Source: a virus
Taxonomy: Duplodnaviria > Heunggongvirae > Uroviricota > Caudoviricetes
Length of the DNA: 44,004 nt
Reading direction: 5' to 3' (one strand)
IMG/VR virus record: IMGVR_UViG_2579778670_000004
In this document: positions 24,901-39,404 of the stretch, in pieces
Numbering within the stretch: position 1 is the first letter of the stretch
Layout: every line of letters begins with the position of its first letter
Translations under genes and position numbers: made by a program
The notes under the pieces: model-generated
Told to the model about the DNA's origin: nothing
The model's database searches: none
Seen by the model: only the letters and a program-made list of their open reading frames with translations

Positions 24901-25389
24901 ATGGCTACCAACCCAAGAGAGCACGCCCGGCGAGTGCTGGACACGTTCTGGTGCGGGCGTGGTTTCCCTGTTGATCCAGCGAAAATTGCTCACGACATGG
25001 GATTAGATGTTTTTATTACCGATCTTCCTGGGAAAGTTTCTGGCGCACTGATTAAACAAAAAGATCAAGATCCAGCGATCTTTCTAAACAGTGATGACAA
25101 CAAAGTTCGTCAACGTTTTTCATGTGGGCATGAGTTGGGGCATTACATCGCCCGGCAAGCATCGCATAGCGATGAATATGAGTACGTTGATTTACGTGGC
25201 GAAACCGCAAGCGCCGGAACGCATCCTGATGAAATTTTTGCAAACAAGTTCGCAGCAGAACTTCTGATGCCGGTAGATGAGGTCAGAAAACTGCACGCTG
25301 ACGGTCAACCAAGTTATATAATGGCGCATTATTTTGGCGTATCTGACGATGCGATGACTTATCGTTTAAAGAACTTGAGGTTGGGGTAA
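24901..25389 (+). CDS. ImmA/IrrE-family zinc metallopeptidase (HExxH)
   Basis: 162-aa ORF with HELGHY motif and overall ImmA/IrrE (COG2856-type) pattern; GGAGGA Shine-Dalgarno. Confidence 0.7.
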   Translation: MATNPREHARRVLDTFWCGRGFPVDPAKIAHDMGLDVFITDLPGKVSGALIKQKDQDPAIFLNSDDNKVRQRFSCGHELGHYIARQASHSDEYEYVDLRGETASAGTHPDEIFANKFAAELLMPVDEVRKLHADGQPSYIMAHYFGVSDDAMTYRLKNLRLG

Positions 25390-25398
25390 CGCTTTAAA

Positions 25399-26004
25399 AT
25401 GCCATCGGATGACGATTTTAACAGCCGTTTCAAACAGGAAGTAGCACGCAGACTGAAGGATTCCCTCAACCTACACCGTCAGTTAGCAGAAGAGGTTGAG
25501 CCGGAGGACGATGAAACTCCGGTTCAGTCTCCTGACGAAGCTTCACCTCAGCCAAAGGTTTCGCACGCCCCCAAAAAAACGGCTGTCCGTATTCGCGGAA
25601 TAGCCAGAAAAAGAGCTGCCGAAGCTCGCAAAATGGCTGTAGCTGCGTCTAGCAAAAGAATTCCAACTGCTACACCCTCTCAACAAGTCACCCGTACTGA
25701 GAGTAAAATCTTGACCGAGTTCACATCTGTGAAACAGGTGAATTCACTTGATACCGAGCATGAGCGCAAACAACTCAACAACAAAGATTTTGAAGCAGAA
25801 ATCGCTCTAAAAAAACGATACGGGAAATGGTTCCTGATTATCCTTGCTTTCCAACTTCTGATAATGAATGGTGTATTTATTGCCGACGGCGCAGGTAAGC
25901 TGGAATTTGAGGATTTAACACTACAGTTGTACATGGGCGGTACTTTGACAGAGGTATTCGGCCTCGTGCTGGTCGTGACAAAATACCTTTTTAAACGCAA
26001 GTAA
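25399..26004 (+). CDS. Membrane protein with charged N-terminal region and two C-terminal transmembrane helices
   Basis: 201-aa ORF 9 bp after the peptidase stop; about 140 aa Lys/Arg/Glu-rich, then FLIILAFQLLIMNGVFIA and TLTEVFGLVLVVTKYLF helices. Confidence 0.55.
   Translation: MPSDDDFNSRFKQEVARRLKDSLNLHRQLAEEVEPEDDETPVQSPDEASPQPKVSHAPKKTAVRIRGIARKRAAEARKMAVAASSKRIPTATPSQQVTRTESKILTEFTSVKQVNSLDTEHERKQLNNKDFEAEIALKKRYGKWFLIILAFQLLIMNGVFIADGAGKLEFEDLTLQLYMGGTLTEVFGLVLVVTKYLFKRK
25933..26004 (+). repeat. Direct repeat copy 1 (3' end of membrane-protein gene)
   Basis: About 72 bp, roughly 90 percent identical to 29354..29425. Confidence 0.7.
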
Positions 26005-26248
26005 CTCTCTCGGTCCAACAGTCTTTCGAAGGCCCTGATCAAAGGGCCTTGATAAATTAGCAGTGCGTTGAAAACAGATAGTTATTCCCATCAGTTCCAA
26101 CGTAATACACATCAAAAAAATCACCATTCTTTTGCTCTAACGTCAACACCTACCCTTAAAAAAATAATTCTCCAAGAATGAGAAAGTTATTGTGTGTATT
26201 AGATAAGATATGAGCTGACACATCTATGGCGTGGAGCCAAATTTAATA

Positions 26249-26282
26249 TGACAGTCCGCTCTGTGCCATAAGCGGACTGTCA
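26249..26282. other. Perfect 11-bp inverted repeat (TGACAGTCCGC / GCGGACTGTCA) with 12-nt loop; possible terminator or protein-binding site
   Basis: Seen directly in sequence, in the intergenic space downstream of both convergent genes. Confidence 0.4.
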
Positions 26283-26466
26283 ATAAACAGATTCACTTGT
26301 AAATCTTGAAGCTATACATATTTACTTTCAATGATAAATAAAAGAACTATCCAAAAATCACTGAGAGCATATTTTAACTAACCCTCCGCTACTATTAACA
26401 TAAATTTCACCCAACCATAATTAAATTGATACATATAGCAACTTACCTTGATACGAATCATCTGGG

Positions 26467-27165
26467 TTATATTTTTCCATATTTTTTTCCGTCAAATCGA
26501 ATCATGCCAGGATCAAGAAAATTAATTAAATCGATTAACGCGTGCTGTATTCTGATTAGCCTTTCTTTATAAATTCCGATATCTCTTGTCATATTTATCA
26601 CTTCATTGTTTAAATCTAAAAAAAATGGCTCATTGATAAAGCAATTTTCCTTTGTGAAACTGCCGTAACCTATGCAATCAAATCCAGTATCTGTTGATAT
26701 CAGCATCTTTTCTGCAATAGCTCTCTGCTCTCCTATGAAAAACATAAAATACTGACCAAAGACGTCTGTTTGGATTAATGAGTTAATATTGTTCTGTAAT
26801 CTAATAAACTCCCTCATTTTTTTATTTTTTTCTAGGCTAAGGTATTGAATGTCTATGCGGGCAGCTTCTGTCCATGCAAAAAACTGGGAAAAAAGAAAAA
26901 CAGTATTGTTGATAACATAATCTTGTTGGCGCTTATTCCCATTATGATAAAACTCTTCAATGAACCCCAATTCTAATATATTATAAATACGGCTTTGTAA
27001 GTCTGAAGCTGAGCGAATTAACGGTTCAATATAGTACTGATGTTTTCTCCTTACATCCAGTGATTCATTGAGCTTGTTTATTCTATTCTGATTATAAGTA
27101 GATATAGCAATAGAGATTATAGCTATTGCACCACTAATAAAGCTTGAAATTAATGCCGTACCCAT
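26467..27165 (-). CDS. Hypothetical protein with N-terminal transmembrane anchor (unknown function, AT-rich cargo)
   Basis: 232-aa ORF; N-terminal hydrophobic helix (ALISSFISGAIAIISIAIS); low-GC codon usage unlike the phage backbone. Confidence 0.5.
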   Translation of the reverse strand: MGTALISSFISGAIAIISIAISTYNQNRINKLNESLDVRRKHQYYIEPLIRSASDLQSRIYNILELGFIEEFYHNGNKRQQDYVINNTVFLFSQFFAWTEAARIDIQYLSLEKNKKMREFIRLQNNINSLIQTDVFGQYFMFFIGEQRAIAEKMLISTDTGFDCIGYGSFTKENCFINEPFFLDLNNEVINMTRDIGIYKERLIRIQHALIDLINFLDPGMIRFDGKKYGKI

Positions 27166-28352
27166 CTAAAAGTCCTTTGATTCTTGCTTGGTTAACAAAA
27201 TGACATAATTTTATTTAATGCCATAACAACTTAACAATATATCATAATATGATTATTATGGTGTAGCTTGTCGCATCTACGCTCCATTACAAACAGATGT
27301 AAGATATAACCTATATGTTTTAGCCAGCAAATTCGAAAGCATTCAAAGTAGTCTCATCGAACTCTCGAAACCCTATGTCTTCGGGTATAAAATATTTAAA
27401 TCCATTTGCATAATATCGACTCATGTTTATTATATTCTCCCCATTCACCATTAAGATTTGACATTATTTTCAACAATCGGTTATTGCAAGATTGAAATAT
27501 ATTTTTACTTGACACAATATTCCATGTAGCCCAGCGATTCGACTTACCCCCAACTATACGGACAATCTAAATTAAATCGATGATTTTTTGATACATTCTC
27601 CTCTCTCCATTACTTTATGTTTTTGTTCCCCAAAAATACCTTGCTCTCTAAAAAATAATTGTTCTTTAAGTTCAAAATCGAGATCTACATGAGCGTTAGA
27701 TACAAAGCTAATATGTTGAAATGTCTTTCCCCCCCCATAACGGCATTGTTATCTAAACTATGTTACACAAATATAATATTACCCTTTCAACGTAATCCAA
27801 GAATAAGATTAATGCCATTATATATATCATAAATATGATATTTTGTATATTTTTATCATTTAGCCTTGATTGTACTAGGTGTACTCTCAACGAAGTAGGG
27901 AAAGTCTGTTCCTCGCTCACAGCTGCCCTTCAGTAAGCGAAAAAATGCCTACTCGGTGCCATATACAGCCATTGTTATTAACAGCAGGGAATAATTCAAA
28001 ACTGAAATTAAATATCTACCTTTTACAGTAGAAATAGTTCCTCCAGGACACTATCCATTGCCGGGCACAATCACTCGGGGTATAACGATATAAAATATGT
28101 TCATGATAGTGCAGGTTCGTATATTAAGTTCAGCAGCGAAAACATGCCTTACAGGTTTCCGGTTTTGGGAGCGTCGTTACAGGATCCTGCGCATACCGTT
28201 CCCATCTGTTGAATTAAAGGTTTCACAGCCTTTGCCGATATCACCTTTTACCTTACCTGTGATGCGTTCAGTGCTCAGCGTTGTTTACTGTAGCTCTCGG
28301 GACTGATTACAGACCGCGTCTTAAAAACCAATCCTTACTCTAAAGGGAATTC

Positions 28353-29276
28353 ATGAGATTAAAATACTCAGTACTCTTACTCGCCATTGCCCTTACAGGC
28401 TGTGATAACAAAAAAGATGAGATCGGTTGTTCTTCGGAAATAACCCAGTCAGCTCTCATGGATTTATTAAAAAAATCTGCTTATGAAGGACTCTCTGAAC
28501 AGGTCGATAAATACCCTGATGTCACTAATCAGACCAAACGAAGCACACTGGACAAGATCAAACTAGCCATCTCTGAGATCTCCACAACATCAAGTGACAC
28601 GGGCAGCACAATGAAAACTTGTGAAGGGACCGTGACGATGACTCTATCTGCGAACGAGTACGTCCAGCTTTCAGATGCTTACAGAAAGAATTTTAATCGT
28701 AATCTCGATAAGCAAATGGAAAGCCTGTTTTTGGAGAACAACGCAAACGCCTTTTCAAAACGTATCACCTACACCGTGCAGGCGACCGACGATCAGAAAA
28801 ACGTTTTTGTAAAAACCTCTACTGATAATCCGATATCAGTGGGCGCCGCTTTACTGACATCGCTTTCCATTATCACCCCGATCGTTGAGCAGCAGAAAAT
28901 CCAGCAGGCTAAGGATGCCCAACAGAGTCAAATTGAAGCGGAACAACAGGTGCAACTCAGGGCGCAAGAACAGGCTAAGTATGAGGCGGAGAAGCAAATA
29001 GAGAGACAGGCACAACTTCAGCCGCAAAAAGCTGACAACCTTGATCAGTCCCGAATGGCATTTGCGAATGCCGACTCTGATTTGAGTACCGTCTGGAGCA
29101 AGTTAACCCCGGCGAAGAAAAAAGATTTGCTGCCTTCTCAGCGTCAGTGGATCAAAACTAAGGATGCTATGTGCGGTAAAGTTTCAATGCAGGGAACAGA
29201 TGCTGAAGTCAAGAAAATGGTCGACTGCCAGACGCAAATGACCCTTTCAAGAATCGCTTTCCTCAGAAACCAATAA
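28353..29276 (+). CDS. Lipoprotein with C-terminal DUF1311 (LprI-like) domain
   Basis: 307-aa ORF; signal peptide plus lipobox LTGC; Gln/Glu-rich coiled-coil linker; C-terminal pattern QRQWIKTKDAMC...DCQTQMTLSRIAFL fits the DUF1311 signature as remembered. Confidence 0.55.
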   Translation: MRLKYSVLLLAIALTGCDNKKDEIGCSSEITQSALMDLLKKSAYEGLSEQVDKYPDVTNQTKRSTLDKIKLAISEISTTSSDTGSTMKTCEGTVTMTLSANEYVQLSDAYRKNFNRNLDKQMESLFLENNANAFSKRITYTVQATDDQKNVFVKTSTDNPISVGAALLTSLSIITPIVEQQKIQQAKDAQQSQIEAEQQVQLRAQEQAKYEAEKQIERQAQLQPQKADNLDQSRMAFANADSDLSTVWSKLTPAKKKDLLPSQRQWIKTKDAMCGKVSMQGTDAEVKKMVDCQTQMTLSRIAFLRNQ

Positions 29277-29353
29277 CTGAAGTCTCCTTCAAGCTGGCGC
29301 CAGGTGTTAACCTGGTGCCAGCTTAGTCATCAAGTGCATATGTAACTGTTTTA

Positions 29354-29425
29354 TATGGGCGGTACTTTGACAGAGGTATTCGGTCTCGTGCTGGTCGTGG
29401 TCAAATACCTTTTTAAGCGCAAATA
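29354..29425 (+). repeat. Direct repeat copy 2 (displaced duplicate of the membrane-protein gene 3' end)
   Basis: Core ATGGGCGGTACTTTGACAGAGGTATTCGG is identical to copy 1 and would encode the same C-terminal peptide (MGGTLTEVFGLVLVV..KYLFKRK). Confidence 0.7.
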
Positions 29426-29450
29426 GAGTATTTCCGCCCCAAACAACCTG

Positions 29451-30269
29451 TCAAAATGCTGAATTAGCAACGGATATAGCCGACTTTTTCCCCATTACCA
29501 TCAATTTATCCAGTGTCATACTTCGCAGATTGTCGCTGTGGATCACCAGATACCCTGCCCGCTCAGCGATCTCTTTGAAAGCGTCAAAGGTCATCAGATG
29601 TTCGCCTTTGGCAACATGGCGCATCCCGGTCACTTTTCCATTTTTGATAGTGGTGATAAAAGAAAAATCTGGAATGGTTGGGTGATTTTCATCGAGTAGC
29701 AGGCAGTGGATGTATTCAATCGCCTCTAACATTTGCGTCTGTGACAGTTGTTCTATGTGAGAGACGGCGAAGCGTTGATGAATCATGGTGTAGGCATCGG
29801 GATACATCATGCCTTTCTTGCCGACCAGTATATTAACGGCATCACGCAAGGGAGTACGGTCATCGGTAGTTGTACTCCGCCTCTCTGGACGCTGGCTAAA
29901 ATAACAATCTTCCAGCTTTTCGAAAACTTCCCAGGCCTGTTCTGTTTCCAGCATTTTGGCATGGCGAGCTGCGCCGCGTTCTGTCCAGAGAATGAGGGAT
30001 CGGGTATGTTTAGCAACTGACTGACTATCTGTCAGTCTGTTTTTGAAGTCGCGTAATTCATTACCTTCCAGCTTAAAAAAATGCTTTCCTACGACAAATC
30101 TGGCGATGTTGCGCTTGAAGTTTTGCTGGATACCATTTACTTCCGTGCCATACAAACTGGCAAGCAATTCAGTAGTGATGACGGGAAGTTGGTTATGATG
30201 TAGCGGAGAAAGGGATTCCGCAGATATTTGGACTGTCATCGCAGTGGCCTCACTTAGTGTTTTTTTCAT
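29451..30269 (-). CDS. Phage antirepressor (ORF6N-type N-terminal domain, KilAC-type C-terminal domain)
   Basis: N-terminal pattern LPVITTELLASLYG...NFKRNIARFVVGKHFFKLEG matches antirepressor domains as remembered. Start moved to the ATG at 30267..30269; the track ORF begins at a TTG at 30287. Confidence 0.6.
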   Translation of the reverse strand: MKKTLSEATAMTVQISAESLSPLHHNQLPVITTELLASLYGTEVNGIQQNFKRNIARFVVGKHFFKLEGNELRDFKNRLTDSQSVAKHTRSLILWTERGAARHAKMLETEQAWEVFEKLEDCYFSQRPERRSTTTDDRTPLRDAVNILVGKKGMMYPDAYTMIHQRFAVSHIEQLSQTQMLEAIEYIHCLLLDENHPTIPDFSFITTIKNGKVTGMRHVAKGEHLMTFDAFKEIAERAGYLVIHSDNLRSMTLDKLMVMGKKSAISVANSAF

Positions 30270-30511
30270 CACCACCAGCGACGCCAATCATCTGGTGGTG
30301 AGCTGTGCAGGGTTGGCGTAACCGGCTAAGTGAACCCGGCGCTTCCACAGAAGCCCCCACACAGCCCACCATAATGCGAATGTGGCCGTGCCTAACACAT
30401 AAAAAAACCGCTAACGCGGCTATGCGTCACTTAGATATCCGGGACGCCAATCCCGGCAACCGATTTTGCGGCTGCGCGGAAACTATAGCCCCGGACTTTT
30501 TCTAAGTCAAT

Positions 30512-38151: not shown

Positions 38152-38181
38152 TGAAGTGGTCAACAAAAACTGGCCACCGAG

Positions 38182-39329
<1,148 letters not shown>

Positions 39330-39404
39330 TATGGCACCTGTGTTGTTCTGAGGTGAGCATATCACCTCTGTTCAGGTGGCCAAATTCAGTAAACCACTTC
39401 ACCC

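Follow-up and report, generated by a model that had tools for sequence, protein, structure and literature searches.

A DUF1311 lipoprotein gene in an Escherichia coli prophage

The stretch of DNA analyzed here, 44,004 nucleotides (nt) of a Caudoviricetes virus (IMG/VR record IMGVR_UViG_2579778670_000004) and referred to below as the window, carries on its plus strand at positions 28353–29276 an open reading frame (ORF) that starts with ATG and encodes a predicted lipoprotein of 307 amino acids (aa). The original prediction, made from the letters alone, covered the same span and described a prophage-borne lipoprotein with a DUF1311 (LprI-like) domain and a Gln-rich coiled coil. Prophage carriage is borne out: with 99.99% identity, the window matches a prophage of Escherichia coli SK1144, which is integrated at tRNA-Leu, beside a tRNA-Leu/Cys/Gly cluster and next to pgsA-uvrC, and which holds terminase, portal, capsid, baseplate, holin, Q, replication and integrase genes. 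The lipoprotein gene and its upstream region lie on the strand opposite to the early-right genes of this prophage. Two informative features of the locus had been missed, namely a conserved sigma-28 promoter and a cassette-like mobility. The features are as follows:

28122–29325, plus strand: conserved mobile unit of 1.2 kb (the cassette), made of upstream region, gene and 3' hairpin, with borders set by blastn homology
28215–28241, plus strand: predicted sigma-28 (FliA) class-3 promoter, with -35 element TAAAGGTT (28215–28222), 11-nt spacer (N11) and -10 element GCCGATAT (28234–28241)
28343–28348, plus strand: AAGGGA, the ribosome-binding site, separated from the ATG by 4 nt; TAAAGGGAA is invariant in 10 of 10 aligned upstream regions
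28353–29276, plus strand: coding sequence of the DUF1311 lipoprotein, 307 aa plus stop (RefSeq WP_001237642.1)
28353–28403, plus strand: predicted lipoprotein signal peptide (residues 1–16) and lipidated Cys17, followed by Asp-Asn at +2/+3; lipobox L-T-G-C read from the sequence
28428–28826, plus strand: N-terminal alpha+beta domain (residues 26–158) in which C26 and C90 are invariant; no Pfam family matches
28830–29018, plus strand: single long helix (residues 160–222), from the AlphaFold2 secondary structure
28884–29027, plus strand: Gln-rich part of the helix (residues 178–225), 35% Gln
29025–29264, plus strand: DUF1311/LprI domain (residues 225–304), a bundle of three helices in which C274 and C292 are invariant, from Pfam, AlphaFold2, Foldseek and profile evidence
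29292–29323, no strand assigned: hairpin with a 14-bp stem, terminator-like and without a U-tract, between the convergent genes for the lipoprotein and an ORF6N antirepressor

The start codon deserves a comment. The PHROGs match of the lipoprotein is phrog_5094, a family of no assigned function whose profile starts only at Met36; this family was built from versions of the protein that start at Met36 and are devoid of the signal peptide. We rejected Met36 as the start. Because the lipobox with C17 is invariant, as is TAAAGGGAA upstream of the ATG, the start of the long ORF at 28353 is the real one. A scan against NCBIfam gave nothing above threshold; matches to TrbK and VirB7 involve the signal peptide only and fall below the cut-offs of these models.

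The domain call and other annotation-level facts are already public and are not new: the RefSeq product name of WP_001237642.1 is 'lysozyme inhibitor LprI family protein'. What is new is the conserved flagellar promoter, the movement of the gene among chromosomes, prophages and phage-plasmids, the unclassified N-terminal domain, and a caution on the name. A literature search found no report on the lipoprotein or on FliA control of any DUF1311 gene, nor did the papers covered yield expression measurements for the gene, and a paper that surveyed motility in ST131 by transposon-directed insertion site sequencing (TraDIS) has nothing on the lipoprotein gene.

A predicted sigma-28 promoter is conserved upstream of the gene

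The putative promoter TAAAGGTT-N11-GCCGATAT lies about 111 nt before the ATG and has two mismatches to the consensus TAAAGTTT-N11-GCCGATAA; we infer a transcription start near 28249. On both strands of the window, this site is the sole match to the consensus with at most two mismatches, with 0.05 such matches expected by chance. To score it more finely, we used a position weight matrix (PWM) derived from 17 E. coli FliA promoters supported by chromatin immunoprecipitation and expression data (Table 2 of PMC4183435). The site reaches 20.2 bits, which is the best score of about 88,000 positions (the runner-up scores 13.1) and falls within the leave-one-out range of the tar, tsr, motA, yhjH and flxA promoters. 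Compared with the mapped E. coli set, its -35 element is identical to that of fliC and its -10 element to that of motA (PMC4183435).

Across ten aligned upstream regions, TAAAG-T and TGCCGATA, spaced 11–12 nt apart, are almost the sole invariant columns, and they persist in Pantoea, although the sequence around them can no longer be aligned there. At 16 of 17 orthologous loci the site has the top PWM score of the whole 9–41-kb locus; it is found 104–115 nt before the ATG and scores 19.4–23.9 bits. This conservation spans at least eight genera. At one Enterobacter prophage locus (L018), a second site outscores the cassette's own site with the FliA matrix.

We also looked for the motif outside the orthologous group, upstream of an enterobacterial paralogue (P0118) and of a distant homologue (P0298), and found it in neither; the flagellar link therefore belongs to the orthologous group and not to DUF1311 proteins in general. 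Within the conserved upstream region of the window (28122–28352), a scan for sigma-70 promoters returned no candidate, and Rfam has no known RNA in the 5' leader of the gene, its only matches in the vicinity being C4/isrK upstream of the adjacent antirepressor gene. From this pattern, we consider it likely that RNA polymerase bearing FliA transcribes the cassette when cells are flagellated, whatever the state of the prophage programme. Transcription from a sigma-28 promoter would place synthesis of the lipoprotein alongside that of flagellin, stators and chemoreceptors, and probably confine it to swimming cells.

The E. coli gene flxA lies in the Qin prophage and would make a precedent for a prophage gene under FliA. 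Its expression in E. coli K-12 depends on FliA, dropping from 280 to 2 in a fliA deletion (Fitzgerald et al., PMC4183435), and it has a sigma-28 promoter (TAAAGATT-N11-GCCGATAG), as is predicted for the gene studied here, and no known flagellar role (PMC4183435). In contrast, the FlxA protein is unrelated to the lipoprotein, and no cassette common to chromosomes, prophages and phage-plasmids has been described for flxA. If the promoter of the lipoprotein gene is functional, the late flagellar regulon includes a prophage gene that about one in ten complete E. coli genomes carry. Apart from flxA, no case of this kind would be as clear, and the gene would offer an easy way in to what DUF1311 domains do.

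The gene appears to travel as a one-gene cassette between chromosomes, prophages and phage-plasmids

DNA homology across genera begins at 28122 and ends at 29325, and the genes on either side are unrelated. Over this interval, blastn aligns the window with Citrobacter, Yersinia rohdei, Leclercia, Enterobacter and Pseudescherichia at 83–91% identity. The unit thus delimited contains about 230 nt of upstream sequence, a single gene and a strong hairpin. The hairpin has a minimum free energy of -32.8 kcal/mol (z -6.0 against shuffled sequences) and lies inside the cross-genus unit; a terminator scan did not call it, there being no T-run.

The cassette is found in several kinds of replicon. In E. 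coli and E. whittamii it resides in the same lambdoid prophage and, in the Enterobacter cloacae complex, in other lambdoid prophages. The slot is always the same, between the replication genes and DinI/DUF1367/RusA/Q, with the gene on the opposite strand. In Klebsiella and Raoultella the gene is carried by SSU5-like phage-plasmids of about 110 kb, as an insertion that is absent from a sequenced relative. Elsewhere, in Citrobacter, Pantoea, Yersinia and Morganella, it is chromosomal and occupies non-phage sites: in the Citrobacter freundii complex it adjoins a fec-like iron-uptake operon (1006 blocks of the collection list this orthologue), and in Yersinia rohdei and Morganella it is near rpoD-dnaG. 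Searches of 50,697 phage records with megablast and tblastn found no match to the lipoprotein gene; one related phage-plasmid among these records is without the cassette. In about 12 genomic contexts, the neighbours are phage, iron-transport, major facilitator superfamily (MFS), alpha-2-macroglobulin/PBP1C, rpoD or island genes, with no effector among them.

Judged by these homology borders, the unit appears to be a portable one-gene cassette, that is a moron of host origin or at least common to hosts. The gene is not specific to phages; it is cargo of host type, captured by temperate elements time and again. With copies in chromosomes, lambdoid prophages and SSU5-like phage-plasmids, the 1.2-kb unit makes a tidy example of a host gene turned moron.

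To estimate carriage, a 1.5-kb query (window 28000–29500) was compared with 5,426 complete E. coli genomes. It matches at least partially in 582 of them and reaches a coverage of 80% or above in 440, invariably on the chromosome, so that about 8–11% of complete E. coli genomes carry the gene. In several of these genomes, IS1 or ISEc52 is inserted inside the queried region. Close relatives of the lipoprotein form 111 clusters with 43–97% identity, all from Enterobacterales. A profile search of 1.84 billion representative proteins gathered 519 clusters at E ≤ 1e-3, many of which are lipoproteins of 290–330 aa with the identical three-part layout.

Two of the contexts are worth recording for their neighbours. 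In Morganella morganii (L014–L016, 1–9002), the orthologue, which has Gly at +2, sits directly downstream of an alpha-2-macroglobulin (YfhM-like)/PBP1C pair, a periplasmic protection and repair module. Three cassette-bearing Enterobacter prophages (L017, 5178–5591; L029 and L030, 1299–1712) also carry, near the lysis or packaging genes, a bona fide Ivy gene (PF08816), which is separate cargo of a recognised lysozyme-inhibitor family.

A predicted membrane-anchored protein of three parts

The N-terminus, MRLKYSVLLLAIALTG-C17, reads as a canonical lipobox: M-R-L-K-Y, then the stretch SVLLLAIA, then L-T-G-C17. This fits the rule we applied (basic residues at the N-terminus, a hydrophobic stretch and [LVI][ASTVI][GAS]C with the Cys at positions 15–35), and all sequences keep C17 in alignments of 24 close and of 45 distant homologues, in agreement with the original call of a lipoprotein. 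Asp occupies position +2 (C17-D18-N19) in 16 of the 24 close orthologues, the rest having Asn or Gly. In Enterobacteriaceae, Asp at +2 is the classical signal for retention in the inner membrane by avoidance of the Lol pathway. Because of this residue, inner-membrane retention is predicted, and we consider it reasonably likely that the lipoprotein stays in the inner membrane, on its periplasmic face.

An AlphaFold2 model built on 24 homologues (mean predicted local distance difference test score, pLDDT, of 83) has a disordered signal peptide, an alpha+beta region at residues 28–155, a helix at 160–222 and a three-helix bundle at 230–305. The N-terminal domain of about 130 residues adopts a cystatin/NTF2-like fold in the model, with no close relative in the PDB.

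At the C-terminus, Pfam PF07007 (LprI, formerly DUF1311) matches residues 225–304 with E 4.1e-7 and 30.8 bits, above the gathering cut-off of 22; the DUF1311 assignment thus stands. The bundle resembles the solved DUF1311 protein 3gi7 (Pseudomonas putida PP0307, PF07007) with a Foldseek probability of 1.00 and a template-modelling (TM) score of 0.65 on the target, and the family profile reaches 3gi7 by sequence as well (E 0.0055), with both Cys aligned. The C-terminal 80 residues are thus the same helical bundle with both conserved Cys kept. 3gi7 differs in being a lone domain of about 100 residues (98–103), whereas here DUF1311 tips a 307-aa lipoprotein that also has an N-terminal domain and a long helix.

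Besides the lipid-bearing C17, four cysteines (C26, C90, C274 and C292) are invariant in 45 sequences. Because of their positions, they suggest one disulfide in each of the two domains, the N-terminal domain and DUF1311.

The Gln-rich segment named in the original prediction is present and lies within the single predicted helix. Its length differs between orthologues. Coiled-coil formation, which had been proposed for it, is unproven for the window protein: the 63-residue helix is polar, the best heptad register places strongly hydrophobic residues at only 33% of a/d positions, and AlphaFold2 returns a single monomeric helix. In a wider-family alignment (A2), the linker between the equivalents of P176 and W248 measures 49 residues in 15 sequences and 56 in seven, with 63 and 70 among the others. 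These seven-residue steps hint at a heptad constraint, as a coiled coil or as a register, that is relaxed in the Gln-expanded enterobacterial subgroup.

A family distinct from that of the window protein (P0201, P0215, P0239, P0243 and P0249) consists of secreted non-lipoproteins of 277–292 aa with a Cys-rich, beta-type N-terminal region. The C-terminal DUF1311 motif of this family, QR-x-WI-x-x-KD-x-x-CG-x-VT-x-x-G, comes nearer to that of the window protein than the motif of the wider lipoprotein family does, which suggests domain shuffling of this DUF1311 subtype.

The lysozyme-inhibitor label and the DUF1311 literature

The original prediction linked DUF1311 to lysozyme inhibition, as do the Pfam name and the product name assigned by the Prokaryotic Genome Annotation Pipeline (PGAP). 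The published record is divided on this point. The Pfam family takes its LprI name from Mycobacterium tuberculosis LprI (Rv1541c), likewise a lipoprotein with PF07007, in which PF07007 is N-terminal and followed by an MliC domain (PF09864); this MliC domain is described as experimentally sufficient for lysozyme resistance (PMC7933661). Salmonella ScwA, which has an LprI domain only, has no effect on lysozyme sensitivity; instead, the lytic transglycosylase MltD becomes more abundant under its influence, and cells that overproduce ScwA lyse (PMC7933661). On the other side, the Liberibacter effector SDE5, also LprI-only, inhibits hen egg-white lysozyme in vitro (PMC12744762). The association of DUF1311 with lysozyme inhibition is thin and not supported in the form first proposed.

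The window protein differs from LprI in having DUF1311 at the C-terminus and no MliC. A Pfam scan up to E 10 returned LprI and two sub-threshold chance matches only, with no MliC, PliC or Ivy (PF08816), and sequence and fold searches of the PDB gave no match to MliC/PliC, Ivy or the related inhibitor domains PliG and PliI. A search of a viral structure library found nothing below E 5e-3 and no meaningful match to the AlphaFold2 model. Because the name 'lysozyme inhibitor' rests on LprI, in which MliC is the part described as sufficient, it should not be taken as a statement of function for the window protein; many other DUF1311 proteins in RefSeq bear the same name. The case for a lysozyme inhibitor in the window is weak.

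The window protein is an architectural and regulatory variant of the known DUF1311/LprI family, and ScwA offers an instructive comparison. ScwA of Salmonella Typhimurium (SL1344_0490) is of similar size (275 aa), periplasmic, and has its LprI domain at the C-terminus; its cysteines form DsbA-dependent disulfides (PMC7933661). The layout of its four conserved Cys is similar, with C30, C100, C237 and C259 compared with C26, C90, C274 and C292 here. ScwA is soluble and not lipidated, with a shorter middle region, unlike the window protein, which is predicted to be lipidated; no flagellar regulation of ScwA is reported in the literature searched. Among our profile searches (the 1.84-billion-protein library and a word-indexed database) and in the cluster names, no Salmonella ScwA entry surfaced. 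Candidates of 275–278 aa were rejected: the P0201 group has another architecture with eight Cys, and P0310 is a truncated protein.

DUF1311 genes have also been noted next to effector genes. In Pantoea, LprI-domain genes with signal peptides lie directly downstream of lysozyme-like type VI effectors (PMC9796082), and other LprI-domain genes adjoin WHIX effectors (PMC12135965); an immunity role was proposed for both from context. What these reports share is the suggestion that DUF1311 proteins bind enzymes cleaving the glycan strands of peptidoglycan.

A proposed flagellum-timed, tethered binder of a peptidoglycan-cleaving enzyme

Taken together, the best overall reading, which we put forward tentatively, is that the gene encodes a member of the flagellar regulon, a periplasmic binder of a peptidoglycan-cleaving enzyme that is tethered to the inner membrane and carried as a moron. 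More specifically, the cassette's own sigma-28 promoter would drive it in lysogens that are motile, without input from the lytic programme of the phage. The product would be exported, lipidated on Cys17 and retained in the inner membrane facing the periplasm, where its disulfide-bonded cystatin/NTF2-like domain would sit next to the membrane. The Gln-rich helix of about 63 residues, about 9 nm if straight, would serve as a stalk, holding the disulfide-bonded DUF1311 bundle out towards the peptidoglycan layer.

The last step is the weakest: the DUF1311 end, possibly together with the N-terminal domain, would bind and restrain a peptidoglycan glycosidase in the periplasm of flagellated cells. 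We regard such restraint by a DUF1311 bundle on a stalk as possible, by analogy with the reports above, at a level of confidence short of an even chance. This glycosidase might belong to the cell itself, as has been suggested for MltD with ScwA, or come from outside, for instance as the tail lysozyme of a phage or a lysozyme-like type VI effector. We hypothesize, as a more specific and decidedly unlikely version, a flagellum-timed envelope defence in which the sigma-28-driven, tethered inhibitor protects motile cells from incoming glycosidases of tail lysozyme or type VI origin. If true, this would cover exposure to flagellum-dependent phages or contact with competitors while motile, and would explain the repeated capture of the cassette by temperate phages and phage-plasmids.

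Several observations weigh against the proposal of a flagellar, tethered enzyme binder. The promoter is a strong prediction, and a prediction from sequence. The Morganella orthologue has no sigma-28 motif upstream. Klebsiella is non-flagellate, and the cassette there has a largely intact motif. In none of the roughly 12 genomic contexts is a hydrolase or effector gene adjacent. Finally, an allele that ends after Leu259 (residues 1–259), with most of DUF1311 gone, is recorded on 11 contigs (P0071, P0307); because this C-terminally truncated allele circulates in E. coli, the gene is dispensable in some lineages.

The original prediction had suggested that a lipoprotein of this type could act in superinfection exclusion or envelope protection. 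As an anti-phage protein, it would block incoming phages, for example by neutralising their tail lysozyme, with sigma-28 timing its synthesis to the flagellated state. The mechanistic model behind the idea is T4 Spackle, a periplasmic helical protein encoded by a lytic phage, which blocks superinfection by inhibiting the tail lysozyme; searches of the PDB and of the viral structure library showed no resemblance to Spackle in sequence or fold. Three kinds of temperate element have captured the cassette independently, the slot in Enterobacter prophages also holds AAA_15/RloB-type genes, and in the window a neighbouring ORF weakly matches a DRT-associated membrane protein. A periplasmic protein tethered to the inner membrane would suit interference with injection, and sigma-28 timing would fit flagellotropic phages, which need flagella and infect flagellated cells. 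Set against this, the lipoprotein has no PADLOC match, a PHROG match that comes without a functional assignment and no match in the 50,697 phage genomes, and it resembles no known exclusion protein in sequence or fold (homology of the Cor, Llp or TraT/TrbK type was not found). Moreover, Citrobacter, Pantoea and Yersinia have the gene, promoter included, as an ordinary part of the chromosome, and the Citrobacter orthologue, apparently widespread, adjoins iron-transport genes. We consider exclusion unlikely as the function of the gene, and the original interpretation as a whole is partly supported.

The Pantoea and WHIX reports raise a second alternative, namely an orphan immunity protein of type VI systems, spread by mobile elements, which would neutralise in the periplasm the lysozyme-like effectors that competitors inject. 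The Pantoea hcp islands hold orphan immunity candidates with a signal peptide and an LprI domain, inferred to neutralise periplasmic lysozyme-like enzymes (PMC9796082), LprI genes lie beside WHIX effectors (PMC12135965), and the family of the window protein is likewise periplasmic and mobile. The Pantoea candidates adjoin effector genes in type VI clusters, whereas the window gene does not: in every context examined, its surroundings are free of genes for effectors, VgrG, Hcp or PAAR. At 307 aa and three modules, the window protein is much larger than a lone DUF1311 of about 100 residues such as 3gi7, and neither its extra domains nor a flagellar promoter, which would not be expected for an immunity gene, is shared with the Pantoea candidates. 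The immunity role of DUF1311 in the cited papers is itself inferred from context. On balance, this role is improbable.

The promoter could also be taken at face value, with the lipoprotein as a non-inhibitory structural or accessory part of the flagellar or chemotaxis envelope apparatus (a spacer or a scaffold near the motor) and DUF1311 as a mere protein-protein adaptor. Conservation of the sigma-28 site would follow naturally, and a rigid helix with wider-family lengths of 49, 56, 63 and 70 would suit a stalk formed by oligomers or a molecular ruler. Yet only about 8–11% of complete E. coli genomes carry the gene, and E. coli swims in its absence; more distant family members and the paralogue are without the promoter, and the gene has no linkage to flagellar loci. 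We judge such an accessory role quite improbable.

The weakest alternative is the one that the RefSeq name conveys, a classical inhibitor of host (animal c-type) lysozyme, and we consider it very improbable: the name and the in vitro activity of LprI-only SDE5 speak for it, and against it stand the missing MliC, PliC and Ivy domains, the sufficiency of MliC in LprI, the absence of a lysozyme phenotype for ScwA (PMC7933661), the SDE5 motif FAASGAE, which is not seen in the window protein on reading, and a predicted inner-membrane tether and flagellar control that are unlike a front-line shield against lysozyme.

Neighbouring genes in the window

The cassette has a repeat in its vicinity:

29345–29422, plus strand: 78-bp copy of the 3' end of a 201-aa ORF; its partner is at 25923–26000, with 89.7% identity

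These direct repeats bracket about 3.4 kb comprising an AT-rich block and the cassette. Both copies are present in an E. whittamii prophage (L002), with different content between them, and the pair looks like a recombination scar from cargo exchange.

The AT-rich island spans window positions 26000–28100, with 31–37% guanine plus cytosine (GC) compared with about 50% in the prophage. It contains an ORF of 232 aa (26467–27165, minus strand) with an N-terminal hydrophobic segment and no Pfam match; its PADLOC match to a membrane protein associated with DRT reverse-transcriptase defence is weak (E 1.8e-5). In 402 E. coli genomes, the approximately 1.2 kb that follow this ORF never contain an annotated gene. 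The interval 24901–26004 begins with an ImmA/IrrE (Peptidase_M78) gene whose product matches the model of CapP, a protease associated with the cyclic-oligonucleotide-based antiphage signalling system (CBASS), with E 2.4e-25; no CBASS genes are near it in the window. The 201-aa ORF (25399–26004) comes immediately after the ImmA/IrrE gene and has a C-terminal membrane segment and no family.

On the other side of the cassette, the ORF6N-domain antirepressor-like gene (29451–30287, minus strand) is convergent with the lipoprotein gene. Directly upstream of it, Rfam identifies a C4 antisense RNA, the a1/b1 target sites and isrK (30291–30488, minus strand). Together, C4/isrK and the antirepressor are a P1/P7-type immunity-I module, in which an antisense RNA governs an antirepressor, in a prophage with lambda-like heads and Q antitermination. 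Further along, at 38153–39402, lies a 1.25-kb element of the IS3 family with transposase ORFs of 112 and 272 aa on the minus strand; the gene that it interrupts (2,217 nt, encoding a hypothetical protein) is intact in the otherwise identical SK1144 prophage.

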